DNA from: Raillietiella orientalis
Lineage: Eukaryota
Length of the DNA stretch: 64,000 nucleotides
NCBI GenBank assembly: GCA_036172245.1
Contig: JAYWIR010000029.1
Location: 372,001-436,000 of the forward strand
Direction: 5' to 3'
Shown: piece after piece, positions 351 through 42,900 of the stretch
How the letters are laid out: every line of letters begins with the position of its first letter
How positions within the stretch are numbered: the stretch's first letter is position 1
Notes under the pieces: generated by a model
What the model was told of the DNA's origin: nothing
Databases searched by the model: none
What the model saw: only the letters and a program-made list of their open reading frames with translations
Program-made: the position numbers and the translations under genes

Positions 351-2181
351 ACTAACAGTGCTGTTGTGAAGGAGTATGCGACCGATGCAAATACATAAAT
401 GGATAATCAGATACATTGGAGTACCTACAATAAGAGAAGAACAGTGATCTTATACATTCAATTTAAATTTTGGAGAACCACACAAGCATTCTGAAACTAT
501 GCGACTAAAGGATGGATTAGAAGCTTCTCGAACAATATTTTAGCACCATGGAGTCTCTAGAATACAGATATTGATGAACGAAGTATTCTAGATTGATAAA
601 AGCAAAATTCGAAGTAGGCTTTCAATTCCCTCGCATTTTCATTAAGTCAAGAGTTTCGAGAGATTTTCCAAAACAAAGATTAAAACCAACTGACTATAGG
701 AGAAAAGTTAAGTCAGCACAGTGGCCTTTAATTGAAGCTCAGAATTATCACTAACTGCGTAAAATGAGACCACCATACATTCTAATTCGAGAAACAAAAG
801 GATGAGGGAACTAACCTTGCACGTGTAACACCTTCAATGGGAAAACTTCAGAAACATGAAGTTTAGACTTAAAAGTATCATCAATAAGCATCAGATGAAA
901 GACCACTGTTTCATCGAGTTTAAATACAAATGTAATTACTTTTTGAAATCCTAAGTAGTATATTTTTTCTTGTATTGTCGATGGACTTTAATAAGATATA
1001 CCATCTTAATTTTTGGCATACTCGCAATGCCTCTCATAGTTTGAATAATGATCATTCATCATAGCAAGGTCAACAAAGCATGGAATTCGACAGGGAATTC
1101 AAGATATCAAGACAGAAGCTTATACGTATCTTGCTTTGCTTGAAATTAAGAAAATGTGTAGCGTATAAGAGCAGAAATTTTTGTATAGCTCTAAAGTACC
1201 ATTGTGATCGGAAACTCACTATCTAAATGTTCAGTGTAAAAGACATCTTCATCTGTTCTCATAACCAAAACATAAACAGTCACCGTTGACCATCACTGAA
1301 ATCCAATCAACTTTTCGTTTTTTCACGAAATCACGACGAAAAACCAACACTGCGAGAGAAGTAAGAAAATCGGCATAAAAAATCAGAAGATACATTACAA
1401 AGATACATTACTGCCTATCATCCAAAACCAGAATTTTTTGCTTCAAAAGAACCTGCGTCCCTCCAAGTTTCATGCCGGGGACTTGCAATTCGGGGTGGCG
1501 GACTTCACGCCAAGACGAAGCCAAAAACTTTCCACGACTTCCGCCATGTGACAGTGCTACGATGCAAGTCGCTTCGTTTCGAATCTTGACTGATTAGAAA
1601 AAGAGGAAAATCTGCCAAACGAATTAAAATCCGAAAGATATGCTATTGCAGCATTTGTAAAAAGATGCATTCACTCCCTGAACATTGTAAACAGACATTA
1701 TCTTGAATCACTTCGATTTTGGAATTTAAACGCACTTTTCGGACGCTTTCGGCGTCTCCGTAAAGCATGCTGGAAGTGCCAACACCAATTATCCGAAGCT
1801 TTGTGCACGAGCGTTTTCGTGGGCGAGGAAAGCTATTGAGCCGTGATTATAGCTAGTTGAAAACTTTATCCAATGCTTCGCCAAGGCAGTGACTGATATC
1901 ACTGCCTCGGCAAATTTGGCGTGCCCTAGTGGGCAAATAAATTACTAAGAACAGTGCTTCGTGAATTGTAAATTGCGAAGTGTTTCGTGTTTGTTAAAAA
2001 AGTGTAGTATCAGTGCAGCAGAGGACGTCGACCATTTCCCAGGGCAGGAGCAGCGTGGAGGAAGGTCCGAGCCCCACCTCGACGGCAGGAGCCCAGCAGT
2101 TCGCCGACACGATGCAGGGACAGACGGACAGGACGACGGAAAAGCGGACAGCGTCGGACGGACGTGTGGTGACCCCCGGCC

Positions 2182-3228
2182 ATGTCTGCAACGTCGACGA
2201 CAGGGGTTCAGCCTCCGAGCCCCCACGTGGCGGGAAATTCGAAGGATGAGACGCCATCCTGTTCGACCACGACGACGCGGCCAATGTCCTACGCAGCGGT
2301 AACGGCGGGCACCAATGCCCAACAAAACCGCAGCTTCGGTAAGCCGGAAACAGGGAAAATAGAGAATAAGGATGAACCGGTTATACGGATAAGTCCAGAC
2401 GTGAAGCCTGTCACGTTTAAAAGTGGACTTATCCGTATAAACAACATCAAGGAGGTCTACTGAGCCCTCTTTAAGGCTAACGTCGACTTTGATCGCGTGC
2501 AGGATATCATATCAAGCACTACAGTGTTCCCTATCTACACGGATAGTGAACCCTTAATTGAAGATTTAATCGAGAAGGGGATCAACATACAAGGACGGTG
2601 GATGTGAGGCAACGGCGAGATGCCATACCCCATGGTGTTCCTAGGTGGCGTGTGCATTACCACGAATAAGCAAGCCACATGGAACTTTTTGGCGAAATAT
2701 GGTGAAGTCCTGGACGTGGAGTTCAGGAACTATTCCGGGAAAGTGTTTTCCGGAGATGTAAAAGCCAAAATAAAGTTACTGGAGGGGGCGCAAATTCCAG
2801 GGTTGACGCACATCGACGGCGACTCCCAGGAGGTCTATGTACGCTACAGGCAACAGCCCATTTTCTGCACAGGGTGCAATTACTTTGGCCATAGGGTCAG
2901 TGCTTGTCGAAGATCTAGGTGTTTCCGGTGTGGCAAGCTAGGCCATCAGGTTAGGTCATGCCAGCAGCCGGCGGTATGCGCCTTTTGCAAGGCTCCGGGC
3001 CATGCAAAGTGGAACTGCCCGGAGTTTGCGAACTGGCGAACTATGCGTGGAATTTCCCCCGTGGGGGAAAGGGTGGAAAAACCGGCCGAAGAGCCGAAAA
3101 GGGTGGTCGTGGAGAAGGCGAAGAAAAAGGGCGTAGACCTGAGTGTGTCTGAGGACGGTTTTGTGGAAGTAAGGAGGAAAGGGAAAAAGGGGGTCCCCCA
3201 AAGGAACAGAAAGTCTCCGAGGAGGTAA
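2182..3228 (+). pseudogene. LINE ORF1 (nucleic-acid-binding, 3x CCHC zinc knuckle), disrupted
   Basis: SYAAV N-terminal motif; knuckles CTGCNYFGHRVSAC, CFRCGKLGHQVRSC, CAFCKAPGHAKWNC; in-frame stop at 2461-2463 and a frameshift near 2600. Confidence 0.85.
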
Positions 3229-3234
3229 AAGACT

Positions 3235-6193
3235 TAATCTAAGCTGATCGATCATGTCTTGCACAGATCATGTCTTCGGAAATTGAGAACCGCATACAAG
3301 GTTTTCGTGGCATGCGAACATTGCTGTCCGATCATTTGTCGGTGCGGTTCTCCCTACGAACAGAAAATCCTCTTCGACGTAAGGCTACCAGGACGGCGCT
3401 CACCTGTATGCCCGCCTGGTTCGAAACGCTTCCCTGTCACCAGGAGGTCATCGAGGCGATTCTGCGAGATGTAACTATGCGCTGAGTCGCCGACTGGGAC
3501 AGCGTGAAGCATAGGATCCATTTATTCTGCAACATGCAGTTTGGCAATAAGAGACTGAGGCAGGAAGCGTACCGGGAGCTAAACACCTAAGCCCGCTCAT
3601 TCTCAAAGTATTACGAACAGTACGAGAGTCGATATGTCTTCCGAAATGTGAAAGGGGAAGTCGGCGTACTAGAAAAGAAGAATCTGGCAACAGATATCTT
3701 CTGCATCCAATCGGTGGCTATGGTCGACACACAACAGAAGACATCATGGATGCCTTTCAAAAAGCATTACACGCGACACTTCCAACAACAATTGTGTTTT
3801 GCAAATCAAAAGTTCTTCACGAAACATTTAGGGAAGATGGATGACCTTCAACGGGAGAGAATGGAAGAGGATTTCTCCAAAGAGGTGAAGGCTGCGTTTC
3901 TGGAATTGCGCAAGGATGTGGCGGCAGACCCTGATAGTGTTCCCATCACGCACTATCAGCGGTAATTGCATGCCTACCTGCGTTTGTTCCACCAGCTGAC
4001 CCTCTGAATCCGAGAAGAAGGACGGTTACCAGAATCCTTCTACGAGAGTCGGATGAGATTGCTGCCAAAAGGAGGCGACCTAACCAAGGTTAACCAATGG
4101 AGGCCAATCTCAATCCTGAACTCAGATGCCAAATGGTTGGCAAAACTTTAAGCCAATCGCTTAGGCAAAGTAATGCCGAGGCTTATTTCTCCCATCCAGA
4201 CATGTGCGGTGTCCGGACGCCACATGTCAGACAACGTCAAGTGTACCCAAGCTATGGTAGGACTCAGCCGATTTATCGGTGAGAACCTAGTGCTGGTATT
4301 CACTGACATGGAGAAAGCCTCTGAAACTATCGATCACGGGATGCTGCTGAAGATTCTGGAAAAGTTGGGCCTTCCGGAATACTTCAGCAACTTTGTAAGG
4401 ATGATACTCTGGAAGCAGTACTTCCGAATTAGGATCAACGGTGAAGAGACGGCAGCTCTCAGAATGGAACGGGGAGTCCGTCAAGGCGACTCTCTGAGTC
4501 CAATGCTGTTCGTCATTTACATGGAGGCACTGTCTTCTTTCATTGAAAAAAGCGGACATTTGCACGGGATTACCATTGATGACCAGAAGCTCACACATTT
4601 GGCTTACGCATACGACCTCGTGTTCTTCATCAAGGAGGAACGAGAACAGAAAGCGCTTCTAAACGTAATCGAGCTAATGGAAATAGGATTGGGCTTGAAA
4701 ATCAATGCCCAGAAGAGCCAACTTTCGCCTGTAGGAATCCTGGACCTTTCCATGCTCACGGGGAGAGGACTCCGAACAGTGGATACCGACAAATACCTAT
4801 GAGTCCACATCGGCGACGATTCGGCCTCGAAGCTTCTATGGACAGAAATCCTAGGGAAAATAGCAAAGGAAGCAGCAAGATATACGCAACTAGACTTTGG
4901 AATGAAGAGGAAGGCCAACCTTTGGAATGGAGTGCTCCTTCCAAAGGTACTATTCGGAGCAGCCTTCCACAGAACGAATAAGGAAATCACGAGAGAGATC
5001 GAGAAGCGCAAGACCCTATGGGGAACTTATCGCCCTAGAGTTAGACTGAAACCTTTGTGTCGTCCCAAGGAAGAAGGTGGAACGGGGATGAAGTCGCTTG
5101 CACATTCCATGGAAATCATGGATACGCGACACATCCTAGATATCGCCGTCCACTGGGACGACTAGCCGTATGCGGCGCATAGGGCCTCTTCGATGATGAT
5201 AAACAACTCGAAAGGCCTGATGACGGCACTGCTAGGCCGAGCAGGGGAATGGTTCACCATTGACCCCACCTGGAGGAGAAAAACGGCTGGTACGGAAACA
5301 CCAACTTAAAATCATACCCAGAAGCAAGGAACTCTGGCAGGATGAATCCATCCTGGTGATCCCGTGGATGCTTCCAGTGCTCCAGGACACGAGAAGCTGG
5401 ATCTACCAGCGGCCCACAGTTTCCATGCAACGAATCCAGGAATGGAGAAGAGGAGGGTGCCTACATCATGCTTGTATACTTCAGTATATAGAGATGATGT
5501 TAAGGAGATTCACCCATAGGACACGCGAGGTGTGGAAAAACCACAATGACTTTGCGTGGTCCAGGGTGAATAAACAGAACCTTCGCCGCTTAGGAGGAAG
5601 AGGATCAAGACATCAGTGCCCTCCAGGAAGCCGTTGATCGCTACGGGAGTGACAGGATCAACCTGTTAGCGATTGGCACGACGCTATGGAGAAGTGACCT
5701 TCCTTCGGACACCCAGGACAACCTCCTGATGTTTTATCGTGGAGGAATTCTGATTGGATCAAGATTGAAATACTTCACTGGAAAGCGGGAAGATGAAGAC
5801 TGCCAGGAATGTGGAGACACAGACAAGAGACTACATATCTTGACGTGTCCCACATTGCTTCGAAACTGGCTGATCCTGAAAAGGATCATAGGAATGGCCA
5901 CCACTTCAGTGATGGAAATACTTGCCGGGATGTTTCAACGATCTGGAAATGTTCCCTGCTACAACCTAATGGTAAGAACGACCATCGCTCTCTTCATCAC
6001 CGGCATACTTGTGCGGTGGTGGAAAATGAGGAAAGCCAGAAGAGATGCACCCCCGATGGAGATTCTACAAGGATTAATCCAAAAGGAGATCGGTATTAGG
6101 AATTGTGGTAGACTCCAGCCCTGAGCGTACCGTTACATCCTGAAGAGGATTGAGGACGACGCTCAGGCAACAACACCAAGAAACCCACCTTAA
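3235..6193 (+). pseudogene. LINE ORF2 (APE remnant - reverse transcriptase - zf-RVT), disrupted
   Basis: LIDHV...LSDH (APE end); WRPISILNSDAK (~4098); DMEKA; GVRQGDSLSPMLF; YAYD (YADD mutated); GLKINAQKS; KEEGGTG; CQECG...HILTC. Multiple frameshifts and stops. Confidence 0.88.
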
Positions 6194-15300: not shown

Positions 15301-16391
15301 GACGTGTGTGAACTTTTCTTTAAAGTGCAGTGAAACTGATTTATATAAGTCTTTGAATTTTGTTTTTTTAGAGTCATTATTCAAAAGTTCCAGCATGCCA
15401 AATAACAACATACTATTATGTTGGATTTGCATATCTGATGATGAGAAGGTACTCTGATGCAGTAAGGACATTTTCAAATATTCTGTTATATATTCAGCGT
15501 ACTAAACAGCTGTTCCAAGCAAAGACATATCAAAATGATCTTGTAAGTATTCAAATCAATGATTCAAATTAATTTTTTTGTTGATAGATCAACAAACAGA
15601 CAGATCAAATGTATGTACTGTTAGCAGTCTGTCTAGTTTTACAACCACAGAATATAGATGAATCAGTCATGTCTGTTCTAAGAGAGAAACCTTATAATGA
15701 AAAAATTCAACGAATGCAAAGACGAGAATTAACGGAGTTTGAAGCATGCTTTTTATTTGCATGTCCTAAGTTTCTTTCATCTGTGCCTTCTGCTTATGAT
15801 GCATCGTTATCAGATTTCAATAAGGAATCAGTACAGTTGCAGTTGAAAGTATTCATGGATGAAGTACAGCAGCAATTGTATTTACCTACAATTCGCAGGT
15901 GTGTATACATTTTTTTTGTTTTTGTTTACCACGTTTCTTTTTGTGTTATATGTTGGGCACCTTTGAATTTTTTGTCTAGCAAAAGATGTTAGCTAATGCA
16001 TATTTTTAAATAATCAGCACATTTTAAATGTGATATTTTATAGTTACTTGAAGTTGTACACAACAATGCCAATATCAAAAGTGGCAGGATTCGTAGACTT
16101 GAAGGAGGATGTATTCAAAACTCAATTATTGTGCTTTAAACACAAAATGAAAAATGTTGTTTGGACAAAAGGGTCATCAGGTTTAGAAGGAGAATTCCAA
16201 TCTGGTTCTGAGGTAAAACTAAATAACCTTGCTGAATATTATTAATATAATTTTAGTTGGATTTTTACATTGACAAAAACATGATCCATATTGCTGATAC
16301 CTTAGTATCAAGAAGGTATGGAGATTTTTTCATCAGACAGATACACAAATACACAGAACTTATTTGCACGCTAAAGTCACTTCATATATAA
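12313..16391 (+). CDS. EIF3L: Eukaryotic translation initiation factor 3 subunit L (~519 aa, 9 coding exons)
   Basis: Exons 12313-12479, 12938-13022, 13076-13199, 13833-14059, 14115-14285, 15372-15542, 15588-15898, 16044-16212, 16257-16391. All introns are GT-AG with consistent phases. Motifs [73 protein letters not shown]. Confidence 0.96.
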
Positions 16392-17994: not shown

Positions 17995-18960
17995 GTTTCC
18001 CACCCGGGTGCGCCGGGGCGTTTATTAGTAAACTATCCGGGAACAGTTCCCAGACAAAGGACACAATAACGAATGGAGGCATCACCGACACGCAGGTCGG
18101 TAAACCGAAAGTCCGGAACGGGAGGGAGGGGCCACAAATACACATATAAAAAAAATAGAAATAAATATTTGGGAAGGGTAGGGGGCCGGGGTCTTTGGTT
18201 TCGGCCGTTCCTTTCCTTCAGAACCGGCAGGGAGTGCCGGAGATCTTGTTCCTCACGTCTTCGGAAGATGGGTCCACACGGCAGCCGACGTCATGTTCTC
18301 GTCGGCTATTCCGGTGGCCTGACGAAGGATGGCCAGCTTCTCCAGCTCTCGGTGGGCCTTGTCGATGGCGCGGGTGCAACAGACCGTTGCGATGACAGCA
18401 CCTAAAGACAGGCCGCCTAGCGTGAAGAAGCGGCGCATCAAGTCTCTCGCGGTGTCCCCCTGGTGCAGGAGAGCTGAGGCCAGCCTCCTCCACAGTCCTT
18501 GGAGGACACCGCAGTCCAGGAGCAGGTGCGGGAGAGTTTCCACTTCCCCGCACCGCTTACAGTTCGGGGAGACAACTCCCCCGGAAACACGGTTCGTCCG
18601 CTGGTTGTAGTGAAAACCCCAATGCACCAGCATGATGACGTCCTGTTTCCAGCTCAAAGGTGCTTGTGCAATATCAGTTCAGGTACCAAGTGCTGACAAG
18701 GACGGCCACTTTTGCAAGGTAGGAAAGAACGGAACGTTCTCGTGTGTACCTCTAGACTGCAGTTCGCACCTCTGACTAAAAGCACCCGGTGCTGGACGCC
18801 GAGATCAGGGGGCCTTCCGTGGCGTCTGTCTGGAATTCCCATACGCCGGCGGCGCTGATAACGATTCTAGTTTACATCCGTCGTGTACCGGTGCCTCATC
18901 TCTGGATAAAAATGAAGGCACCAGAGACCCAACTTCATGGGGTTACTACACCGCTGCTAC
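17995..18960 (-). mobile_element. 5'-truncated L1/Tx1-like LINE, family B (ORF2 C-terminus and 3'UTR)
   Basis: ORF 18253-18657 contains the zf-RVT motif CKRCGEVETLPHLLLDC..LQGLW. The 3'UTR matches 120-350. Terminal AATAAA (rc 18021-18026) plus CCCGG/CCGGG hairpin. 5' boundary is approximate. Confidence 0.82.
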
Positions 18961-22577: not shown

Positions 22578-25500
22578 TTACATTACTGTTTGACTAATAT
22601 TTCGAGAATTAAGGAAAACAGAATGTACAATATCCTTCAAATTGCTATTATCAGTTTCTAGCACGACACGTCGCTTGTGTGCTTCTAAGATTAATTCCCT
22701 CCAATGAGGATGTACCTAAATAATGCTCAATGAAATGAATACAGTTTTTTGAAACTCACTTTTAAAGAGGAAAGATGTCCAATAATGATGAGGCTGTATC
22801 TTGCACGCGTCAGTGCAACATTTAACCTTTGCGGGTGACTTAGAAAACCAATAGACTGTTTATTATTTGCTCGCACACAAGATAAAATAATAATATCCTT
22901 TTCTCTTCCTTGAAATCCATCAACAGTGTTCACTTCCACCTCAGGTTCGTTTTTGATCAATTCTGCCAACGTCTTTTGAATGATCAATTTTTGTTTTGCA
23001 TATGGTGTAATAATACCAACTGAAAGTCTGTTTATCAGTTTATTCTCTATTATGGATTTCGTTATTTCGGCCGTTACTACAGCTTCGTTGAGATTACTCA
23101 AACTCCTAAAAGAGAAAAATGCACACATCAATTTGAATGAGAACTCGGCTGGCTTCAAACATGGCAATGAGTACGAAGATCCGCCGAACCACTTCTTTCA
23201 ACAAGAAATTTTCAAGCACTCAACGTTCGAATTACGTAAGTTGAAACAAAAAAAAAGTACCTTACTTTTGAGCATGAAATTCAAAAAAGAATCAACAGCA
23301 TTTAGTAGCAGAACTAAAATAAGCATACCAATACATAAAGGTACCATTATTTCAATATGTAAAGAGAGAAATTAATGTTCGTAAATTTCCAAGTACAGAC
23401 TTGAATTTTCAATGCAATTTTTTTCGCCAAAATGTATTCATACAAAAAAGGCAAATTCACACTCATACTTTATAAATTAGAAGAAGTCTGTAAAGCAAAT
23501 TAAATTTTTTAGACAGAAAACTATTCCGCCAACTAAGAATAATCTGACAATGAAATTTTAAAAAATGTGGCAACACTGAACTTATAGAAAGTGCGTGTGA
23601 AATCATTGAGAAATGCCTGGTCTATACCTTAAAAAGTGATAGAAACAAAAACATTGAAAACAGGTGAAGGGGGGGGGGATCTATTTCTTGGAGAAACGAA
23701 AACAAACAAATTAGCAGCTAATAAGTTCATTCGAGTAATACGTTCACAATTTAAACTGCTCATGAAAAATGGAGGAGGAAAATTCGATACATAACTATAC
23801 GAATCAGCTGGAAAAAAAAAAAAATCATCATCAGACTGGCCCTCGTTCGTATTTCTATTTAGTTTGGTTAACACTGGAAAAAGAATTTTGCGGTTCGCGG
23901 TTATCCTATGACTGACTAATAAACATCGAGCATTCCCAACTGAAGTCACGATCAGTGAGGGAATAAAGGCAGTACTAAAAAGCAGCGTTTAAACATCTGC
24001 TGGCAGTAACACGCATGGGTTGGTTGGCCTTGCACTGGCGATAAAACCAATAATTCCACGTAAAATCTAGCTTTCTTTGTGAAAAAAGAAAAACGCATCT
24101 TCAGGGAGGAAATATGGGCTACTAGCACTCTAACTCTTCCCCAATTCACTGATTTGGGATTTAAGCATTAGGATCCATTTCTGAAACATCCAATATCGGG
24201 GTTCTGTTTTCTATGCATGAAGACCATCTCAAGTGGTCAGCGTGACGGAGACTGCTAAATCGCAGCACATCTTCAGAGACGGATTTTGCACCTGGTCAAA
24301 ACAGCAGCAGCAACGGAAAAGGGGGGGGGAGTTGGCAGCTGTGGGGAAAACACCAAAGTCAAAAATGCATAACTATGATCATTTTAACTCGTGAAAAGGC
24401 GAGAAAACTGTGCAACGTTTATCACAAAAGTCCGGGGAACAGGACAGACGTTATAAATTCAGAAAGCTTCATGCTCGACATACTGTGCAATGCGGGACGA
24501 CCACAATTCATTGCAGTTGCCAATTCACAGACTTTAAGGTTATGCTAGATTCAAGGAACATGTAATTCATTTAAGGTCAATAGATCACACTTCTACACTA
24601 CTACTTCTCAAAGAAGATAGCGCTATATCAGATTTGAAGTAGCAAACTGAGATTCTGATTCTGAAGCAACGCCAACAGTGGTCATTCTTACAATGAGTCA
24701 TCTCTTGAGTCTCCACTTGAAAACATCCTTTTCCCCATAATGCAATAGATACCCACAATACGTCTGTATTGTGTACTACGACTGCTCATTTCGAATAAGT
24801 GCTTATCTAGAGCACAATTCACTGCGTGGCAGTGTATTCATAGAGAACTACCATTCACATTCCTACTACGTTTGCGGCGCTCATAACCCCTCCGACCCTT
24901 CGATAAGGAACTCAGTATTTCTAGTTTATAATACAGATTCAAATGGGAAACAAAACTATTTCAGGGGGAAATGTGGTGTTCCAGAGTCAAATCATAACAC
25001 AGTAACTTAAGATAAATTCTGCAAAAATCCACCAAATTCCATTATTTTAATGTTTTGACAATGTTCTAACAAGAAACTAATACTAGCTACGTGATAGACT
25101 GCAAAATATGAAGAAATGAAAGTCATGGGTGAAAATCACAATGATTTCACATCTACTTTAAAGGCAAATAATATTTTCAATTACGTACGCAGGTTTAAAT
25201 GTTTAAATTAAATCAAAGGAATGCTCATCAATTAAAGTAGATTGTGTACGCAAATTTCAAATGCATTTATCTTTAACAGTGATTAATGACTTAAAAAGTC
25301 AGATGATCGGATTACATTGGGGAACCAGAACAAAACGAAAAAAAAAAAAAAAAAATATCGAATTCAAAAAATTATCAAAAACAACCTGAAACTGTTCAGA
25401 AATCAATGCAATAAGACTAGATACAAATATCAATATTTACCCATTTGTGCGTCTTCTTTCCTCTCCATTCTGAACATCTATCACAAAATAAGGCTTTAAC

Positions 25501-28500
25501 TGACATTCCCTTATTACATCAAGACTAGCATCTGAGAAGAGTTCATTTTTATAAAAGTACTGTGATGGCCACATTGCTATTTCTGGATGCATTCTATACT
25601 GCACATTAAGTAATGAAACAGAATGTTTTAATACATTTCGACTTTTGTAAAATTTGTACATTCTCTCAAAAAATGACTGCGTAAAATTGTGATGTGAAGC
25701 TAATCTGGATTTAATTACTGGGGGCAATTGTAAAGGATCACCAATTAAAATGAGTTTTTTTATACCAAACATTAGGGGTATTAAGGATTCTAATTCAGTA
25801 CTTTGAGCAGCTTCATCAACAAAACAACAGTCCAAAAGAAAAGACTTGTGACTTCTTAAAAACACATCCATAGCACCAGTTAAGCAAGTTTTCAAAGTTG
25901 AAACAATAACATCTGCATTTTTAATTAGATTCATCCTCATATCACTTTCCTTTTTCCTGAGATCTTCTGACCCAAAGCATAACTCTGGATTTAGAAGCTT
26001 TTTCTGAAGACGCAATTTTTGATTTTCCAGCTGAGCTAATGAACACTCACATTTAGAAATGTCTTTCTTTGAAACATCTGAAGTTCCCTGGAATGACTGA
26101 AAATTTCTAAGGCCTTTAAGTTTTTCCTCCTTCAGGTTGATTGCTTTATTTAGTTGATTAATTGATAATTGTATTGCATCCGAATCATTCCAAGTGCTCA
26201 ATTCTTTTTGCATATTTTTATTCAATAAGTTTTCCATGCTATATAAACGTGCTTCAGGATGGGCTGAAATTGGTTTTCCAAGTCGCAAAAAGTTAAACGT
26301 TTTGATTTCCTTTCTTTGTTTTAAATCCTGTTTCTCAACTACTAGTCTTCGAATAAGTTCATCAACAGCTGCATTTGATGGCGCTGTTAATAAAATTTTC
26401 TTATTAGTTTTTTTCATATGTTTATCATAAATAATATTTAATATGGTTTTTACAATAAAATGTGATTTCCCTGATCCAGGAGGCCCATGTATTAACTGAA
26501 TATCTGGTACATCAGAATGCTCCAATATGCTCCTAGATACAGATAATGCTGCCTGAGTTTGGGCATGATTCATACGGGGAAAAGTGCGTTTGCTGACGTT
26601 ACACGGTGCAGGATACGGATATTTACATTCCTTTAGCAAAACATTTGATAGCAAGGGAGACTGGGCTAAGGACAATAAGGATTTATACTGATTCACATCT
26701 GGACGTATATATGCAATCCTTGTAACATCAAACATTTGCTTAGTATTAATTTTTAAAAACGCTCTTCCTTTTAATAGAATTTCGAAACTTAAAGTGATTT
26801 CCTTTGATGGTTGAAAAGATCTAGATAAATTACGAATGTAGCCAAAGCATTTCAACTTTATTTCTTCATTGGATATACACTCATCTACATTAAGTTTCAC
26901 AACACCTTCTAATGTAGTCAAATCTCCTAATTGCCACAGACTATCATTCTCATTCCCATTTAAATTGCATGTACAATAGATACATATCAACTCTGTAGTA
27001 GTACTTATGAAAATTGTTTCGCTGTGATATACTTCAACAGTTAATTTTGTAAAACTAGTTTCACTAAAATGTTTGTAATTAGCTTTAACAGTTTCCCACA
27101 ATTCTATCATATAAAGAGGATAAAATACTTGATAATACTCCTCATAAGAATTAAAGTTGATTCCTACTGATTTTAATGGCTTATTACCATAAACACCTTT
27201 AGGAGACTGACCATTTTCTTTTTCATTCAACCACATAGGATTCCATGTCAGAACATCATAAATGATTTGGTTTTTGTTCAATTCAAAATTTGATTGTGAA
27301 GGCTTTGTACATTTTTCTTCTGAATGATTAGAAACTAGTTTTCCAGATGGCTGTAGGACAGTGCTTTCAACCTGATCAGGCAATGAAGGGCGCTTGTTTG
27401 CAGTCATCGCCTTGGAGATCGAATTACTTAGCACAGACAATTTCTCATCAGAATGTTCAATTACTTGATTAATTTCCTTTCTTACTTTCACTTCTCTAGG
27501 AGTAGGTGGGTCCCCTAGGAATTTTAATTTCTTAGGAACATCAAGACTCATGTCCGAATATAGTAAATCACTTCGTGATGAACTACAAGATTTTACTTTA
27601 GGGATAAACTTTTTTGAAGATTTGCTTAAAGAATTGGTTTTGCAGTGAAGATTTCTGAATTTTATCGAAGCACTATAGCCAGAGAGATTGAATTTGTTCT
27701 TCATTTCCTCTCTGAGCCTGGATGAATTTTTTTTCAAGCAAGTCTTACGGTACATTATACTGTTATAATTTGCACACTTATTTGATTCAGTAAATGGAGC
27801 AACAGGATTTACAGGCTTTTCCGTAGTTTTTACCTTCTCTGCCGCCACATTTTCCTTGAGTTTATCACGCTCCATTTCACTTAAAATTTCTTGTGACAAC
27901 TGAGGCCAAAAATCAGAAAAAGAATCTAACTGTTTCTCCTTCTTTTTTGAATGAATAGCATTTCGTAAATCAGATTCTTTACTTAGGTGTGCATGAGACT
28001 GAATGCTGAATTCTTGGGAATGAAAGGAAGGAATAGCTTTTTGCACACATAATTGATTACTTCCTACATTTGTATTCAAAAATGAGAAATTTCGAGCACC
28101 ACGAGTATCACAGAAAGAATTCTCAACTTTTTGTACAGCAAGTTTGCATTCATCACAGTTACCTGAAAGCAAAGTTTGCTGAGCAATTTCCTTACTTTCT
28201 TCATTATTCAAAATACATGTAGAGAATGGAATGGACTGCTTTAATGGTGTTTGTACATTCAATTTAGACTGTTCATGGTTATTCAGTGTGGCATTCTCAG
28301 AAGCACAATGATTGGAGTTTGTATCAAGTAATACATATCCCTTGTCCCAATTGATTTTTTCAGTTTGCACCTTGACATCGTCACCCTTTTTTGCAGCACC
28401 TTTCTCCTCAACATTAGTAAAACTAACTATTGGTTTCACAAAGGCATCACTTGGTTCAAATGAAATAGCAGAAGCATCTTTAAAATTGCACCATACAATT

Positions 28501-30629
28501 TCAATATCTTCATCTGCACTGTTTTCCTTACTTAGATCGACAGACAATGCATTATTGGCATCAGAATCAAGGTGGTTTTCTGGATATTTTCCTGAACACT
28601 TTGTACCTTCAAGTTTATCACCATCAGCATAAGTTTTCAAGCACTTGTCCTGCGAACTTTTATTAATATTTGCATCTCTATATATTTTGCTTTGCTCAAT
28701 TTTGTTATCAGCTAATTCACAAGGTAAATTTTGAAGACTGTTATTTAAAAGAACATCACTTGGAGTACCTGCACTACTGTTTTTTTCTATCACATGTTTC
28801 CCAACAAAACTTTCAAGCACATCTACTTCATCACTTAATTTGGAAAACTTTGTTTTTGTTGAAATCCCTGCTTTCACTGGGGTTAATTTTCGTTTATGAC
28901 ACTTCACAATAGTTTCTCGTTCTTCCAAATTAAGATCAGATATAATTATGGGTTCTTCCTTGAATACTTGTCTTATCTTTTCATTAGCTTCTTTTCCATC
29001 ATCCAATGAATCTAGCAAATTTGTTGATTCCCGAATCAGCTCACCTTCATTTACTGATAAGTCAAATGGCTCTTCCTAATCTATTTTAACATTGAGTTTG
29101 GGAGCATATTCATACCTTGATGATACGAGGAGGATTTGAAACCACATAGATGTAATGTGAAGATAAAACATTATCCAAATTGGTTGGAACACCAACTCCA
29201 ATTCTACTTCCTGGATTCAACTGGACTGGTATATTTGGTGTGATTTTTACATCATCTACCCATGTTCCATTTAGACTCTATTAAAGACCATCATTTCAAA
29301 ATACAATTATGGTCCTTTAATAAAGTAGACTGCTTTTAAAATCTCAAGAACAAATTGTTTACATTCAGTGTAGTTAGTTATGTGAAATATTAAAATATTT
29401 ATTTACTTACACCCATATCACTGATTTCAATACAATGCTCTGAAACAGTTATGATGCTGTGTACTCTTGATACAAAAGTACTTTTTAAAGATATATATTT
29501 GAAATTACTTATGGGACCTTCATAAGCACAATTTTTCCCTCTTCCAAAAATCTGTGAAACAACCAAAAAGAAAATAACATGACTCACGATGGAATAAAAC
29601 TCCTTACAGTGCATAAATTTAATTTACAGTGCATAAAGTTTCTCTCCATCAAAATACTAGTAAGTGAAATTTCATCATAACTAGCAAAAATTATTCAAAA
29701 CAAAGGCATTTAATATTTTGATGATATTGAGAAATCATTTATACTTGACACATACATGTCTTCTATGAACACAAATACAAACTGAATTTGTTTCATGCTA
29801 ACAATTTCTAACAAATCTACAATTCTCCTTTAATTTTTAATACAAGATATCTATCTTATTCATATGTTATAAACTGCCCTACACTTCAATTTTCATCCAT
29901 AACAAATAATGCATTACCATGTAATCTGTAGTCTACTTGTATTTGAATTGTATATTTTATTGTTCCAATATAAAGTTATTTTTTGATAACCCTATAAGAT
30001 AAAATTCAAGTTTTTGCTTTAATCAAATGCACAAAACTTGAGCAAACCATCATTAAAAGCACATACAATTACATGCTACAGTTTCTAAATAAGATGCACC
30101 TCTAACTATGATATCTGTATTGCACTTTTAATTAAAACAAAAAGAGTCTACTTTGGAATTTAACCTTACTATTAATTCTGTTTGCACAATTTAAAATTAT
30201 TCCAATATATTAGTTCTTTCAAGTAGCAGTTTGAAAAGTGATTTCACTGAGATTCAGCAATTCAAAAGAATACTTTGAAACGATTTCATTATTGTTTAGA
30301 ATGTTCCTTCAACTGTAGAATATAATAATGCTTGAGCTGTACAATTGGATCAGATTCTTTTATGTGATAGTCATTATGCAAAATACCACATTTGCCATCA
30401 ACCAACCAAAAAAATGCGCACTATTCATGATTAATAACTTTACTATTTAAAAAAAAAAATTCCAAATACTCCAAAATTATAATGTGAATGGAAATTCAAA
30501 ACAAGAGTACAACCACACCATACTAATAAAAATTGGAATAATCATAAACATTCTTACATGATTTTCGCACAGCTTCAATCTTCCTGGATATTTAATTCTT
30601 TGCAAAAAAACATCACATGTTTGTTCCAT
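22578..30629 (-). CDS. SETX: Senataxin/Sen1-like SF1B (Upf1-like) helicase with N-terminal FHA domain (~1497 aa, 6 coding exons)
   Basis: Exons (-) 30629-30558, 29551-29411, 29277-29116, 29075-25441, 23105-22760, 22715-22578. All introns are GT-AG and frame-consistent. Helicase motifs GPPGSGKS, APSNAAVDE, VDEAAQ, LIGDPLQLPP, QYRMHPEI, TVDGFQGREKD, RLNVALTRAR. FHA motifs FGRG, SRVH, DMGSLNGTWV. Orthology to SETX is inferred. Confidence 0.85.
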
Positions 30630-34514: not shown

Positions 34515-35990
34515 TTTCCCCATTCTAACATGAGGTGAGGTATTTAATCAAAACAACTTTACAAACAAAGCAAAGCATTATCAACTGCCCTACAAAAGAA
34601 GTAGATACGATTGTATACAATCGATCTCTTGTTCTCTCACTTTTCGCCGAGCACTCATACCATCTGCAGTGTTGGGGTTTCTTTGCACTTGGGCATTCTC
34701 TTAGGGTCTTAGGATCAATGTGAATGTTCCAGACTAAGAGTCTTCCGCACGTATTTCTTTTATCAAGCCCTGTGAGAGTTTCCAGGGTGTTTAGGCTACT
34801 ACAGTTGTTCCTAGACGAAATTACGACCTGATCAAAATGCTTGCGATAAAGAAGGCACTCGTGAACATTCTTTGTCACAAGGTCGCATAAGAGCACAACC
34901 CCTTCCTCTCAGAGTTCACTCAGGATCTCTGCCCTGCTCCTCTTCTGGTCTCTCTTGCAAGCCCGTAGTCTGCTCCATCATTTCCAGTCCTGGAGTAGCG
35001 TTCGGCAGCGAACACATGGAGTTGGATTTCCCTATCGGCATTTGTCCTTGAGAACTCGTCCGCGGGTTCCCATTCAGTACTAGTGTCACACAAGAGATGG
35101 AAAATCTTGGCTTTTCAGTGGTAAATCAGATTTCCTGACATTTGTTCCAAGTCCGACTGTGTACAGTTGCATTCAAATGGAAACGAGCTTTCCAGGAGAC
35201 CGTTGCGAGTGCATGAACAGAAGGCGAATGAAATGCGTATTAAATTGAATCCAACTTCCTATTCAGTGAAATGCGGACTTAATCGCGAGGAAACGCACGA
35301 TGCTCCAGGCAGGCAGGCGATTGTGACCGTCTTTTGCTTTTGTCCAGAAAAGTATGCGTTTCAAAGAAATGATGGTTGGTTGATGTTGATTCACTACATG
35401 AGTTTTTATTCCGATTTCATCTATTTTTATCTAAGGATTGCGTGAAGAAATGACAAGTATTAACTGACATTTGTTCCAAGTTTTCAGTCAACTGAGCAGC
35501 TTTCCGATCATTGGAAAGCTGCTCAGTTGTGTGGCTTCTCGGTGTGTAGTTGTCCAACGCTGTATCAGAGACTTTCTTCATTCTGCCATAGTTCCGTCAT
35601 CATGTGGGTCTTGTGGCTTTACATTGCTTTCATACAGTCGAATCTCGTGGAGATTGCCGCTCGTTGCAAACTGTTCAGGCTATCTTATTTTCATAGCTGG
35701 TCCTAACTTGATCCATCTCCCCGTTGTCCATGCCGTGGGAAGCAAATGGGGAATCATCAGAGCCATTCTCTTTTCCAAAATTCCTAGCTTTGGGAATCAC
35801 CTCGAGCCCATTGATGTTTACCGGAGTTTGTTTCCTCAACTGCGTGATAAATGAATGTTCATCCAGTGGCCCATTTTTCTGGTTAAGGGTGCTGTTAGAC
35901 TTTAATTGTCGATCAGTTTTGCGTGGGTCCTATATATTGCATTGGGGCATTCATCTTAAATGGCTGTGGTCTGCAGAAGTTAATAGGAGT
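34515..35990 (-). mobile_element. 5'-truncated, decayed family A LINE copy 3, interrupted at 35153-35463
   Basis: Minus-strand remnants LEVIPKARNF (~LKIIPRSKEL), KSDLPLKSQD (~SDLPQDTQD), QLHVF..RTLLQDW, ETLTGL..TCGR. Ends ATTAAA-ta-CCTCA-cct-CATGT-tag-aa-TGGGG, like copies 1 and 2. Confidence 0.75.
35157..35461 (+). repeat. Left arm of a near-identical inverted repeat; flanked by an 18-bp direct repeat
   Basis: Reverse complement of 36462-36706 apart from a 60-bp indel (35288-35347) and a few substitutions. CTGACATTTGTTCCAAGT occurs at 35135-35152 and 35464-35481. Confidence 0.92.
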
Positions 35991-36461: not shown

Positions 36462-36706
36462 AATACTTGTCATTTCTTTACGCAATCCTTAGATAAAAAT
36501 AGATGAAATCGGAATAAAAACTCATGTAGTGAATCAACATCAACCAACCATCATTTCTTTGAAACGCATACTTTTCGCGATTAAGTCCGCATTTCACTGA
36601 ATAGGAAGTTGGATTCAATTCAATACGCATTTCATTCGCCTTCTGTTCATGCACTCGCAACGGTCTCCTGGAAAGCTCGTTTCCATTTGAATGCAACTGT
36701 ACACAG
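36462..36706 (-). repeat. Right arm of the inverted repeat (lacks the 60-bp segment)
   Basis: Direct comparison with 35157-35461; also seen as the twin ORFs 35167-35445 (+) and 36478-36696 (-). Confidence 0.92.
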
Positions 36707-37750: not shown

Positions 37751-39951
37751 CTATATTTCCTGTAAGATCTTTTTAAGCATATTGACTGCTATTAATCTGC
37801 CAAACTTCACTGATGGATTAATACATTCTTCAATTATAGAATAAAGATTCATGTGTGATGAATGATACTTAATTGTGGATCCATGTAAAAAATTGCCTCG
37901 TGCAGGTGAGAAGATTTCCTAAGGATATTAAGATTACAACACAAATTGACAGAAAATTTGCTTACTAAGCACACAGCATAGAAATTATGATCATTTAATG
38001 GGTGACTGCATAAACTTGTCAATGAGAATCCTAAACAAGCACTTCCACATTTATAGTCATCAACTTCATATAATTCTAAATCTCCTGCAGCAAGCATCAA
38101 AATTTTAGACTAAATTCAAGAGTTAATTTGTGATAAACCTTTTGGATTTAGCTGATCCACAACTACAATGCTGTCCGTATCTACAACATAAACATAATAT
38201 TTTTGTTGAAGCTGTTTCACAGAGAAGTTGTCAAATGAAGGATCTGTTAAATAAAATGAAAAATTCTCTTTTCCTTCTGAAAGAATAGTTACTACTTCCA
38301 AAAGTTGCAAGGCTATCTTTGCTCTAATAATAAAATTGGAATTTCTATACATCTTCAAAGGTTTGCCTTCATAAGTTTCTATCAAATAATCTTTGCACAA
38401 GCCCACATATTTTGGAAATGGCCATGCAGATGAATATGAAAACAACTTACACTGAATTGTGACTAACAAGAAAATACAACTTACTAATAAAAATAATGCC
38501 TCTTTGTTAGAAATCAGATGCACAATTACTTCACTGAATCTGCTCTTACATAAGGCGACTTTTAAATTGGAAAAACTGACTGAATTGTTTCCTGATGTGT
38601 AACTTGGAAGGCAAACATTCTATAAAAATAATAAATACAGAAAAATTCGCACAAGCAAATTTTATACAAAAAAACAAACTTAATGATAACTTTGCAGCGA
38701 TGAGCACTAAATGACAGTCTACGATAATTGTATACACGATTAGATGCTTTGAATTGGCTTTCCAAAGAAGTATTTCTAAAATTTGTTGAAACTTTAATGG
38801 TTGCATATATGCTTATATTACATCTAAAAGAAATTCATCTGTAAAACAAAACATACACACAATAAAATACATTCACGTATATGCATTAATGGAACTTAAA
38901 TCTGAAGGTGCTTTAAGTTATCATACATCTTTACAAATAAAACCAATGCACAGCAAATACACCTATCTTTGCAAACCTTCTCCTATTCATTAACACACAT
39001 TTTTTCCGTTGAACCAAAAGAATTCCAACAAATAAGCAATGCACAACAAATGCACAAACAACTTGCAAAATAAATAGGGTTAGAAAAATAACTTAGATTG
39101 ATGCATACAAAAAGCACAATTAAAGAATGCACTTTGATGGGAAAACATGGGTATACCCAACAAGAAATCATATCCGTAAGCCGATTGTCGTAAGACTAAT
39201 TGTCGTGTCCCCTTAATGGAATCCCTCCATATTCATCATTTCTGATGCCAAAAAAACAACTTGATTTTTTTTGAAAATTTCCGAAATTATTTCAAAAATC
39301 ATACTTTGATACGTTATGAACGGGAATCGATAATCTCACTCTTTTAATCATATTTAATTATAATCATTCTCTAATAATTACCGATCATGTTTCATGAATA
39401 GGTTGACAACAAGAGCCATTTCACAATATACTAACTTTTACCAGCCGCGTGAGCTGAAAATAAATCATTTTTCTTAATCTTATTGAAGCACAGCTTAAGA
39501 CATTTGGGGAATTCAAATAACAAATTCTACTGTCTAGAGCATTTTGTTGTGTTGACTCTGACTTCAAAAGATTGTAAACATATGCGGGAAATGAGTTTAT
39601 GCTGCATTCGAATGAATAATTGCTTCCTACGACACAGCAAGGGTTTTCTGTTGCAGAATTAAAGTCATCTCTCTTGATATACTTCTTGAGAACGACCTCG
39701 CGATTTTGAATGCTTCCGAAGTAGACACCTCTGTAGCTTGAAAAAAAATTTTCCAATATCGATGCTATTACGAATCTATCATCATCAAGGGTACAGTTAA
39801 ACGATATTAAATTGGCGATTTTATGCCAAACATGCCGGATGATGCTGATGGCACATATAGTTAATGAAAAACTGACCACTACCGATGTGAATGTCGATTT
39901 CTTTAATTTCCAGTACCAGAGCAGCTTTTTAAGATTCCTCAATTTTAACAT
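37751..39951 (-). CDS. DIPK2A: Divergent protein kinase domain 2A-like (C3orf58/DIA1 family) type II membrane/secretory kinase, ~387 aa
   Basis: Exons (-) 39951-39442, 38544-38485, 38445-38139, 38084-37966, 37918-37751. N-terminal hydrophobic segment, GVYFG...VVLKK, WPFPKYVGLC, IALQLLE, YLTDPSFDNF, ACLGFS..LC...DHNFYAVC, ECINP..FGR. The exon 2 acceptor is the least certain boundary. Confidence 0.85.
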
Positions 39952-42900
39952 TACAATGCACCTATAATGAATACGACTGCACTGTCTGCAGTGAACTATA
40001 ATCCGTACTTCATCACCGTCATTACATTAAGCTCCAGATGCACCACCACAAGCTAAATTTGGTTGTCCTAAACTTTGCACCCATAAAAAACGGAAACAAG
40101 GGTGTCCAGTGTTTTCACAAGAGTACATCCATCAAGGCATTGCATTGTACATGAACGTCAGGATAAAGATCCACATAGTCGACGTAAAACATTCAGGGTT
40201 AAATACATCTGAATTTTGCAAGTCAGCTTGGTACTAACGGTTTATTTTAGAAAAAAATATTATATGATGAAATTTCAGTAAATCCAAAGTAGGCATGCTT
40301 TAAAGGTTATGTAATCACAAAGTCGGAAAATAATAATGTCTTTTGAAGTCCAAAGCAAACAAAAAGGAATAGCTGAGTGAAAATGGGAGATGGATGGTAA
40401 GTTCGAAACTTCGTGTGAAAAGATTACTACACACAAAACCGTCTGCTGGCAAACAAATTGGACAAAAATTCCCAATATGCGCGTCTACCTATGCGAACCG
40501 TACACATAAATCCTTACATTAATTAATATAACTAAGAAATTCGTTTTATTGTAAGAATACAATGCTAATCTGGAAGCATGACATTTGAAATTTTGAAAAT
40601 AAGATGAAATATTATTGAAAGCATTTACCGAGTACTTTTTCATGAAATTACATCATGAATTTTTTTTTGAAAATTCCCTGTGCCTTGAAAATTTATCATA
40701 AGAAAGAACTCAAGCTGCATTTTTATTAACAATAACACTGAAAGCAAATAAATATCGCAGGCTGCAGATATGACAAATTCATGGAAAAGTTTTAAAATTC
40801 CTAGGCATTATTAATTAAGACTTAGGCATATGTGTGAGTTTTGTAAAGAAAAACCGGATGAAATCCTTTATATATCAGATTTATTTGCTCGTTTTATTAC
40901 ATTTGTTCTTTCAAAAAAATCAGCAGTTTTTCTTTTGTTCTTTTCTTCTCCACAAGAGATAACCGAAAAGGATTTCCCACAATTTATGTTATCGAAAACT
41001 GGAGGGGGAAAAAAAAAACTTTGGAAGATTGATTTGGAAGATTTCTTGTTCACACACGGATTCATATCCATGATTCCTGTTTCCCATGATGCTAACCTTT
41101 AAAATGTTGGTCACTTTGAAAATGGAAAGTCGAACTTCCAGTTTAACTTTGAAATATTGTGTATTATTAACTTATTAGCTAAAGGCCATAACTGTTCTAT
41201 GAGTGTAAGTAATTTTAAAATATGAAACAAAAAACAAGAACCTCCAAACATGAGGTGTAAAATAAAAGTATTCTGTTGATGATAAAAGGACTGCAAGAAA
41301 ATGCGATCACCAAGCAGAGATCGAGGAACACATTGCATGGAGTACATTTGAAAGACACATAGTCAAAAACATCGTAATCAGTGGGTTTCGTGATAATCGT
41401 ACCATATCAGAGATCCTGAAGAAGTACGATTTCGACTGATAGAAAACCATATCAATAATACATATAGCAGTTCTTTGTTATCGTTTTGTTTCAAAAGATC
41501 TCTTTAGAACTTCACTTGAGTAATGCCAACTGTTCAAGTTTATGATTTCAGATCGTAAAGATACAACAAATTTCAAGTATGCTTTTGTCAAAATTAACAC
41601 AGTACACAATAAATGGAAAATGAAAACAAACATCATGATAAAAGTCATAGGAAGCGAATCCAAATGGAATAAGATTGCTGGAATGTAAGCTTCATAGGAC
41701 ATGGAAAATATGTTTCAAAAATATTCAATTCAATTTCAATTTGATAACGGAAAAATCCTAATATGAGAATATTCGGCTAGAGAGCACTTGCGAACAAAAG
41801 TGAAGACTCTTCATGTTTCAAAACTTATTGAAAACACTTGAAATCACGACACTATATGTAATTCAAGATCAGAAAGTTGGATGAGCGTTGGTAACTGCAA
41901 AAGCATTTTCATCAATTAGTACCCCGTGGATCTAATGGAAAGGACTCTTACCGTAAATTAAATTTATAGTATCATCATATAAGCAAACGAATAATGAAAG
42001 AGGAAACCCGAGAGAATATAAGAATTTTATTCTAATACTCCAACACAGGTTCAACAATTACAAGTAAACATGAAATTACCAGGATAACAACCGGATCATT
42101 ATAGTGGTAGAATTCATGAATGTGAAAATAATCGAAAACTAAAACACAGATCATTTTAGAATGATGAAATTATTTGGCGCTATTGAATAATCGTAATGGT
42201 CTGGCCATTTTGTAGCTAAACATACTAGGTTGCTGAATGAGTCCATTATTTTATAGGAAAACACTGTATGAATCCATAGTGTCACAGACTTCGAGGAGTG
42301 ACAGAAAGCCACTAGAGTTCCAGCATAGATTACTAGGAAGAACAACATGTAGCCAACAAAAGTTGATTTATTCAATAGAAGCTTGCAATCAGCAATGAAT
42401 AACAAAGGTCAAAATCGATCATTTATATGATTAGGAGCGAATACCCAAGCACAATTAATGCAGAAGACAATTTTGCATTATCCACTTTTGCGTTTCCTTA
42501 AAAAAGAATTTTAACTTGCACAAAAAGTTCTTGTAGGTTTTCATTACATTTAGAGCAGAAACATAATACTTGAAATTTAATTTCATAAGGTGTGGTTTTG
42601 TAATTGTCATTCTATGCAAACCTCCTTTGCAGACCTTCAAGACTTGTGCAAAAAAAAAAAAAAAAAAAAACAAATATTTTGTTATCTATGCGAATCCAAT
42701 TAAGGTATTATTGAAAGATCATTGCTATTTTCGCCCGCAGACCTAGCAGGCAAAAATAGCTAATTGGGCAAAATGTGAAACGGGAAAAAAAGTTGATTCG
42801 AATAACTTAATTAAAAGGGTAAGAAAGCTCACGCTTCATTATACTGTTTTTCCTTTTCATTGCTTTAGATCATCATCACTGAAAGTCCATAGGCTTCTGT

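Follow-up and report, generated by a model that had tools for sequence, protein, structure and literature searches.

A probable senataxin orthologue of the arthropod type, with an N-terminal RNF8-like FHA domain, in Raillietiella orientalis

There is still no agreement on how senataxin reaches R-loops, termination sites and DNA breaks, and its N-terminal domain, which is large, does not lend itself easily to study. A gene on the minus strand of a 64,000-nucleotide stretch of the Raillietiella orientalis genome (assembly GCA_036172245.1, contig JAYWIR010000029.1, positions 372,001 to 436,000; the whole stretch is hereafter called the window) raises this question in a different form: what kind of protein couples a Sen1/senataxin-type motor to a phosphopeptide-binding FHA domain, and what might the FHA domain do there? 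An earlier reading made from the letters and open reading frames alone (the sequence-only reading) had proposed a senataxin-like helicase carrying an N-terminal FHA domain and had suggested that phospho-signalling recruits it. We consider it very probable that the locus is the orthologue of senataxin (Sen1 in yeast, SETX in vertebrates) in its arthropod build, with an N-terminal RNF8-like FHA domain, a disordered linker of about 600 residues rich in Ser, Lys and Glu, and an intact superfamily 1B (SF1B) 5'-3' helicase. The layout described by the sequence-only reading, with an FHA domain at the N-terminus, a long linker of low complexity and then a helicase of the Sen1/senataxin type (SF1B), is borne out by the Pfam matches, the Protein Data Bank (PDB) matches and the spliced gene model.

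Do the FHA domain and the helicase belong to one protein? The gene occupies positions 30629-22578 and consists of six exons, the borders of which were verified by script; all of its introns begin with GT and end with AG.

30629-30558, minus strand: exon 1, 72 nt and 24 codons, encoding the first FHA strands; ATG at 30629, GT donor after 30558
29551-29411, minus strand: exon 2, 141 nt and 47 codons, AG/GT borders, phase 0, encoding the FHA motifs G-R and S-R-x-H
29277-29116, minus strand: exon 3, 162 nt and 54 codons, AG/GT borders, phase 0, encoding the later half of the FHA domain with SLNGT and GVGVP, and the first half of IKEEP
29075-25441, minus strand: exon 4, 3635 nt, encoding the linker and most of the helicase (RecA1, the accessory regions and the start of RecA2)
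23105-22760, minus strand: exon 5, 346 nt, AG/GT borders, encoding the remainder of RecA2 with motifs V and VI
22715-22578, minus strand: exon 6, 138 nt, 45 codons and TAA, AG acceptor, in frame; the stop codon ends at 22578

The joined coding sequence of 4494 nt translates into 1497 amino acids with zero internal stops, and an in-frame TGA lies four codons 5' of the ATG at 30629. Exons 1-3 are each in phase 0, and the codon split at the end of exon 4 is completed by exon 5. The sequence-only reading had joined the three small upstream exons in frame to the helicase exon through GT-AG introns; all of its coordinates proved correct, and the peptides that it had quoted are found in the spliced protein (FGRG at residues 26-29, SRVH at 52-55, SLNGT at 72-76, GVGVP at 98-102, IKEE at 124-127 and FKEE at 163-166).

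The FHA exons could instead constitute a separate small upstream gene, or chance reading frames, that are never spliced to the helicase exon, in which case the helicase would be made without an FHA domain. The 1006-nt length of intron 1, compared with 133, 40 and 44 nt for introns 2, 3 and 5, would suit such a division. Yet the open frame of exon 4, 1212 codons long, has a TAG directly upstream and no Met within its first 400 codons, and is therefore unable to start a protein alone. Furthermore, the phases fit at every junction, the FHA profile continues without interruption over the exon 2/3 junction, and in at least 36 database relatives a single protein carries both the FHA domain, at its extreme N-terminus, and the helicase. 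We regard FHA exons that are not spliced to the helicase exon as extremely unlikely and treat the six exons as one gene. Intron 4 (23106-25440, 2335 nt) is far longer than introns 2, 3 and 5, has a higher G+C content and contains poly-C and poly-T runs, and is therefore likely to hold an inserted repeat.

Which helicase family does the C-terminal half represent? The region and its landmarks are as follows.

27272-22581, minus strand: residues 727-1497, helicase region of the Sen1/SETX type (introns 4 and 5 lie within the span)
27228-27245, minus strand: helicase motif WNPMWL in the helicase region
26463-26486, minus strand: Walker A motif GPPGSGKS in the helicase region
25803-25820, minus strand: motif II DEAAQ in the helicase region
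22799-22828, minus strand: motif VI RLNVALTRAR in exon 5

Exon 4 matches the Pfam profiles AAA_11 (3.7e-51) and the start of AAA_12 (1.1e-11), as expected for the helicase that the sequence-only reading had recognised. Motifs I, Ia, II, III, IV, V and VI are intact (GPPGSGKS, TAPSNAAVDE, DEAAQ, GDPLQLPP, QYRMHP, TVDGFQGREKD and RLNVALTRAR). When the last 593 residues of exon 4 were compared with all PDB sequences, the best match was yeast Sen1 (8ram chain O, E 2e-35), aligned from residue 22 to 588 of the query with residues 1146-1707 of the chain, thereby spanning the accessory regions in front of RecA1 and within it. UPF1, Nam7 and IGHMBP2, by comparison, align over the core only (query residues about 404-566; 422-563 for UPF1) with E-values of about 1e-20 to 1e-22, and DNA2, Aquarius and ZNFX1 are far weaker matches. 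The end of RecA2 encoded by exon 5 matches UPF1, Sen1 and IGHMBP2 in the PDB. The gene appears to encode an SF1B helicase of the Sen1/SETX type, and its motor, judged from the motifs, looks active. The window protein shares this SF1B helicase with all its motifs with yeast Sen1 and vertebrate SETX, and Sen1 is its best solved relative over the core and the accessory regions. It differs from them at the N-terminus, where it has an FHA domain instead of a detectable SEN1_N domain (PF12726), which was not found in exon 4 or in exons 1-3 at E-values up to 10.

The identity of the N-terminal domain rests on several lines of comparison.

30617-29137, minus strand: FHA domain, approximately residues 5-118, divided among exons 1-3 (two introns lie within the span)

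The Pfam scan was run exon by exon and not on the spliced protein as a single sequence. Residues 19-47 of exon 2 match positions 10-39 of the FHA profile (PF00498) with 14.3 bits (E 0.056), and residues 1-29 of exon 3 match positions 40-67 with 21.5 bits (E 3.2e-4; curated cut-off 20.7). At the exon 2/3 splice site one half of the profile directly follows the other, which would be hard to obtain by chance and therefore supports the junction. The FHA call of the sequence-only reading is thus upheld by the Pfam profile, exon 3 passing the cut-off and exon 2 adding the adjoining profile positions. The N-terminal 160 residues of 25 homologues from the databases were used to build a hidden Markov model (HMM), with which the spliced protein scores 59.9 bits. 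The residues of the phosphothreonine pocket are present (G27-R28, S52-R53-V54-H55 and N74-G75), aligning with conserved columns of alignment A1, a profile of ten homologue N-termini and two window exons, and with RNF8. In A1 the G, the S-R-x-H and the last G are conserved at 90% or more. In the alignments the window FHA retains G-R, S-R-x-H, S-L-N-G-T and I-G-x-G, with a 10-residue insertion in exon 2 after G-R and ahead of S-R-x-H, and VFLQR of exon 1 aligns with the WxLxR first strand of the homologues, a correspondence seen by alignment with no statistical test.

Which FHA subfamily is closest? Searched against PDB sequences, A1 placed the RNF8 FHA domain at the top with 72.3 bits (E 3e-19, profile positions 1-111), followed by Vps64 (56.8 bits), CHFR (53.5 bits) and then many other FHA domains; OdhI and GarA are among the closer matches, and APLF reaches 28.9 bits. 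The AlphaFold model of one homologue, P0002, has a mean pLDDT (predicted local distance difference test) of 87.5, the alignment including the window exons. With this model, Foldseek returned 2pie, the RNF8 FHA-phosphopeptide complex, as the first match (E 2.4e-8, 31% identity), and all the top matches are FHA domains, which supports the beta-sandwich fold of an FHA domain for P0002. The sequence-only reading had been reminded of the RNF8 and CHFR FHA domains, and this impression holds at the level of the family, with RNF8 ahead of CHFR in the profile search and ranked first by Foldseek. Of the solved FHA domains, that of RNF8 (2pie, 2csw) fits the family profile best, along its full length and with the first strand included, CHFR (1lgp) being more distant, and GRG, SLNG-x-W and LGVP are common to RNF8 and the window sequence. 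The likeness to RNF8 is a family-level result because exon 3 of the window alone matches residues 73-117 of RNF8 (SLNGxW ... GVP) only with E 0.34, tied with Rad53, and exon 2 alone found no match when searched against the PDB; single exons of the window are too short to reveal the preference. RNF8 couples its FHA domain to a RING finger, whereas the window gene couples it to a helicase.

Is an FHA-bearing senataxin peculiar to this genome? We searched with the helicase region among proteins of 666-2121 residues, which gave 1020 matches at E ≤ 0.001; 25 of the best 120 carry precomputed FHA and AAA_11/AAA_12 domains. The family HMM applied to these 120 proteins recovered exactly the same 25, with the FHA domain at the extreme N-terminus in every one (25/25). 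A second search among longer proteins, from which the best 120 of 852 matches were considered, adds at least 9 FHA-bearing proteins, decapod or unnamed. A third search among longer proteins used the N-terminal profile A1 and was dominated by bacterial multi-FHA ABC-transporter proteins, thereby providing no census of the architecture; 7 of the 120 matches listed have a helicase, two of them new (Daphnia and Diabrotica). Altogether at least 36 database proteins carry both the FHA domain and a Sen1-type helicase. Those with a named source among the matches listed are all arthropod: crabs, lobster, crayfish, shrimps, prawns and Daphnia, further three Ixodes ticks, the spider Uloborus, the springtail Allacma, three beetles, two bugs and Drosophila immigrans. 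In the databases they go by names such as 'FHA domain-containing protein' (Scylla, Petrolisthes, Allacma and Callosobruchus), 'helicase SEN1 isoform X2' (Cimex lectularius) and 'probable helicase senataxin' (Uloborus diversus). A cluster search with the helicase part gave only generic AAA_11 clusters, mostly bacterial, and has no bearing on the architecture.

The other side of this distribution is formed by vertebrate and amphioxus SETX and fungal Sen1, which have SEN1_N instead of FHA. No arthropod protein with SEN1_N was present among the 240 matches listed from the first and second searches, and the proteins of a clam (4256 aa) and a crinoid (2428 aa) show neither FHA nor SEN1_N at E 0.001. 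In print, Drosophila CG7504 (senataxin) is mentioned in passing as encoding an FHA domain-containing factor (PMC8513875). The novelty that the sequence-only reading had implied for the FHA-helicase architecture does not survive these counts and the passing mention of CG7504: FHA-bearing senataxin was already common in databases. The union of FHA and senataxin is the usual arthropod form, known from databases and print, and the window gene is a very divergent further member, not a new kind of protein. It has the N-terminal FHA domain, the long disordered linker and the C-terminal AAA_11/AAA_12 in common with the FHA-type senataxins of arthropods (CG7504 and those of Cimex lectularius, Uloborus diversus, Scylla, Petrolisthes, Allacma and Callosobruchus). 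Within this common plan, the window protein has 1497 aa where the decapod proteins reach 2000-2600 aa, is only about 30% identical to the arthropod FHA-type proteins in the helicase region, and differs from them by the 10-residue insertion between G-R and S-R-x-H.

Does the helicase itself trace back to senataxin? Helicase regions were cut with phmmer, 30 of 121 rows with less than 80% query coverage were set aside, and the rows for the trees were picked by hand. Trees were computed with the quick search of IQ-TREE under LG+C20+F+G4 with posterior mean site frequencies (PMSF) and with support from the Shimodaira-Hasegawa-like approximate likelihood ratio test (SH-aLRT), using a single outgroup row, a UPF1-like fungal protein. 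In a tree of 45 rows, one clade with 98% support unites the window protein with all the FHA-type proteins and with a few arthropod models in which no FHA domain was called; it stands apart from vertebrate SETX (100%) and fungal Sen1 (100%). A tree of 40 rows adds clam, crinoid, amphioxus, Daphnia and more decapods. Here fungi (99%), animals (95%), vertebrates (100%) and the FHA-type clade of 24 rows (99%) are each supported, and the FHA-type clade is nested in the animals but distinct from vertebrate SETX, amphioxus, crinoid and clam, so that the 95% group joins animal SETX with the FHA-type proteins. The clade is divided into spider and ticks (94%) and a group of decapods, Daphnia, hexapods and the window protein (86%). 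The window protein falls in the same clade as the arthropod FHA-type senataxins in both trees. The affinity to senataxin proposed by the sequence-only reading is supported as far as the helicase groups with animal SETX (95%) and not with the UPF1-like outgroup; the comparison does not extend to IGHMBP2, MOV10 and ZNFX1, which are outside the tree. The gene tree roughly follows arthropod phylogeny, as might be expected of a single-copy SETX orthologue with a swapped N-terminus.

These trees also bear on the idea that the FHA-type helicase is a lineage-specific Upf1-like paralogue with a role of its own and not the counterpart of Sen1/SETX in termination and R-loop removal. The absence of SEN1_N, which fungal Sen1 and vertebrate and amphioxus SETX carry, would fit a paralogue, as would the long branches in the trees and an exon 5 that alone is nearer to UPF1 (86.9 bits) than to Sen1 (73.6 bits). 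However, the 240 matches listed contain no arthropod protein with SEN1_N, the clade sits within animal SETX and roughly tracks the arthropod phylogeny like a single-copy orthologue, and the alignment with Sen1 covers the accessory regions. Moreover, the passing mention in PMC8513875 treats CG7504 as Drosophila senataxin. We therefore find a separate paralogue improbable, and orthology to senataxin is the reading that we carry forward.

Several observations nevertheless weigh against the senataxin orthologue with an RNF8-like FHA domain as we describe it, in addition to the score of exon 5 and the weak or missing matches of exons 3 and 2 when each was searched alone. The support for the splice junctions consists of sequence logic and homology. 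The window branch is long in both trees (1.2-1.4), the best relatives are only about 30% identical over the helicase, and the 86% group that holds the window protein is a polytomy below the 95% mark (the star of the tree); because of the low identity and the long branch, the place of the window protein inside the FHA-type clade is provisional. In Foldseek the E-value of RNF8 is no more than roughly tenfold better than those of other FHA domains. Two insect members of the clade, P0012 (Cryptotermes, a termite) and P0018 (Xylocopa, a bee), have gene models without FHA or any other N-terminal domain. These could be poor gene models or a real loss, and the N-termini of both public models are probably incomplete. 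An unnamed sister of the Xylocopa protein, P0022, carries an FHA domain. Finally, the literature searched, which mostly excludes subscription journals, contained no study of the role of the FHA domain within senataxin and no binding, helicase or SUMO experiment on any FHA-type member.

What lies between the FHA domain and the motor? The linker comprises residues 127-726 and is rich in Ser (12.5%), Lys, Leu, Glu and Asn, and no Pfam domain was found in it by the scan. Two sets of short motifs stand out.

28935-29121, minus strand: psiKxEP pair, IKEEP at residues 124-128 (across intron 3) and FKEEP at 163-167, followed by the SIM-like (SIM, SUMO-interaction motif) sequence IIISD at 168-172
27870-27911, minus strand: conserved linker motif FWPQLSQEILSEME, with FWPQLSQEI at residues 514-522; family pattern [FWYL]PxLSQx[FILWY]

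The psiKxEP form occurs twice in the linker of the window protein compared with 0.07 expected from shuffles. Across the linkers of 32 family proteins it was counted 40 times against 3.5 expected, an enrichment of about tenfold in which the rows are related and the events not independent, and psiKxE was counted 123 times in the same linkers against 62 expected from shuffles. The sequence-only reading had pointed out IKEE and FKEE as two SUMO-type psiKxE motifs. Both are present and belong to a family trait in the form psiKxEP, but plain psiKxE was rejected as a signal in the window protein, since its 4 sites do not exceed the 4.9 ± 2.1 of shuffles. IIISD next to FKEEP is suggested as a candidate SUMO-interaction motif. 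Similar stretches, such as IIISDDDED and IVTISDSDED, occur in relatives, and 12 of 37 family proteins fit a strict SIM-like pattern, [VILT][VIL][VILT][VIL]S[DS][DES]; the window protein does not match this strict pattern, its IIISD preceding Leu. PMC3814643 reports that sumoylation of human SETX controls its binding to the exosome subunit Rrp45. Involvement of SUMO is documented there for human SETX and suggested here by consensus sites, so that a SUMO link might be a theme common to both.

The second motif, FWPQLSQEILSEME, is of the [FW][FW]PxLSQ type, usually followed by acidic residues in the family. The pattern [FWYL]PxLSQx[FILWY] is present in 23 of 37 FHA-type proteins, from decapods (often twice), Daphnia, ticks, several unnamed sources and the window, and the strict pattern is absent from the hexapods and the spider among the FHA-type proteins scanned. 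Among 206 other helicase proteins it was found in four, all of which fall in the FHA-type clade but had no FHA domain called, and in none of the vertebrate and fungal ones. Among the 243 helicase proteins examined, the pattern is confined to the FHA-type clade. The window protein shares this motif, and the psiKxEP sites as well, with the crustacean and tick FHA-type senataxins, and it has one copy where many decapods have two; none of the vertebrate and fungal Sen1/SETX proteins examined has it. Leu-Ser-Gln amid hydrophobic and acidic neighbours resembles the preferred target context of ATM/ATR. The LSQ motif could be an ATM/ATR-type target or equally a docking motif.

How might such a protein work? 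By analogy with Sen1 and SETX, the helicase would translocate 5'-3' on RNA or DNA, unwind RNA:DNA hybrids and thereby remove R-loops, and it would also dislodge RNA polymerase II. The FHA domain might take the place of the SEN1_N interaction platform and supply targeting by tethering the helicase to a partner that bears a phosphothreonine. The likeness to RNF8 would point to a mark of the pT-x-x-aromatic or pTQ type, placed on this partner by checkpoint kinases, and other phosphothreonines, such as those of the RNA polymerase II tail, would be equally open as targets. The linker could add SUMO-dependent contacts through the psiKxEP sites adjoining the SIM-like IIISD, and a regulated contact through the LSQ motif, either as an ATM/ATR-type target lookalike or as a docking motif. 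Recruitment by DNA-damage pTQ sites, which the sequence-only reading had inferred, stays hypothetical, although the RNF8 likeness makes it somewhat more plausible. In its fullest form, the proposal would be that an FHA domain of the RNF8 type, together with a linker bearing SUMO-consensus, SIM-like and LSQ elements, replaced SEN1_N on the arthropod stem, and that the helicase is recruited directly by checkpoint-kinase phosphothreonine marks, for example, the pTQxF of an MDC1-like mediator, assuming part of the reading role of vertebrate RNF8. We offer this scenario tentatively and consider it more doubtful than probable.

Aprataxin, PNKP and APLF are FHA-bearing DNA-repair enzymes. Their logic is the same as that proposed here, namely a nucleic-acid enzyme guided by an N-terminal FHA domain that reads phosphothreonines made by kinases, although they use another FHA subfamily (as the 28.9 bits of APLF with the family profile indicate) and have unrelated catalytic domains. 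According to PMC2836575, the FHA domain of aprataxin binds MDC1.

The FHA domain could also act within the molecule or between copies of it, by binding phosphothreonines of its own Ser/Thr-rich linker, in which case phosphorylation would switch the helicase or drive self-association. Binding of an FHA domain to phosphosites in the same protein has precedents in the dimerisation of Chk2/Rad53 and in GarA/OdhI. The appearance of OdhI and GarA among the closer PDB matches of the family FHA profile, together with a Ser-rich linker (12.5%) that contains conserved short motifs, would be in keeping with such a switch. FHA domains, however, are known as readers of phosphothreonine, whereas the sole strongly conserved phospho-type motif of the linker is SQ, with serine. 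No conserved TxxF/Y or TQ motif turned up in the linker, no search having been aimed at such motifs. Self-binding is, in our estimate, very unlikely, and tethering of the helicase to a phosphothreonine-bearing partner remains the mechanism that we prefer.

The surroundings of the gene in the window contain the following features.

1797-1934, plus strand: full-length U4 spliceosomal small nuclear RNA gene (Rfam RF00015, 74 bits against a gathering threshold of 46, model positions 1-138)
2608-6124, plus strand, and 18253-18678, minus strand: remnants of a non-LTR (long terminal repeat) retrotransposon, with about 50% GC in a region of 31-35% GC
2608-3228, plus strand: Gag-like frame of the first remnant, with CCHC zinc knuckles
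4152-4802, plus strand: reverse transcriptase of the first remnant (RVT_1, 1.6e-19), which has several broken frames
18253-18678, minus strand: separate zf-RVT match, weak (E 0.0013; 19.8 bits, under the cut-off of 27.5)
15588-15992, plus strand: exon of eIF3 subunit L (eIF3L; Pfam Paf67, 3.7e-32)
35157-35461 and 36462-36706: inverted repeats in two adjoining pairs, with arms of 132 and 115 nt, 99% complementary and about 1 kb apart
38116-38619, minus strand: kinase-domain exon of the FAM69/DIPK type (PIP49_C, 1.2e-13)
39421-40026, minus strand: frame of 201 codons with no Pfam match, possibly part of the FAM69/DIPK-type neighbour

The U4 gene sits just upstream of the GC-rich retrotransposon remnant. 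Among 1.84 billion representative proteins none exceeds 61% identity to the eIF3L exon, and the lineage is therefore poorly sampled; of ten matches considered more closely, those nearest with a named source are from a coral (54%) and ticks (51%). The eIF3L and FAM69/DIPK exons mark the window as animal DNA, and taken with the tree these matches suggest, as a best guess, a crustacean-grade pancrustacean. The kinase exon belongs to a neighbouring gene, as it lies on the same strand as the helicase gene and upstream of it. The inverted repeats are located in the 7.5-kb gap between the start of the helicase gene and this neighbour, and their arrangement resembles a foldback of recent origin or a transposon bounded by terminal inverted repeats.

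In summary, FHA-type senataxin is a phylum-wide property that was already visible in the databases and is no discovery by this window. The window adds a very divergent member and thereby widens the sequence range of the family, which helps to single out the RNF8-like FHA domain, psiKxEP and [FW][FW]PxLSQ; what remains of interest is the part played by the RNF8-like FHA domain and by the conserved linker motifs. Arthropod senataxin is simpler, with a small and well-understood phosphothreonine reader in the N-terminal place, which makes it a convenient experimental handle. If recruitment by checkpoint marks were true, the recruitment of senataxin would become genetically dissectable in Drosophila by single point mutants.

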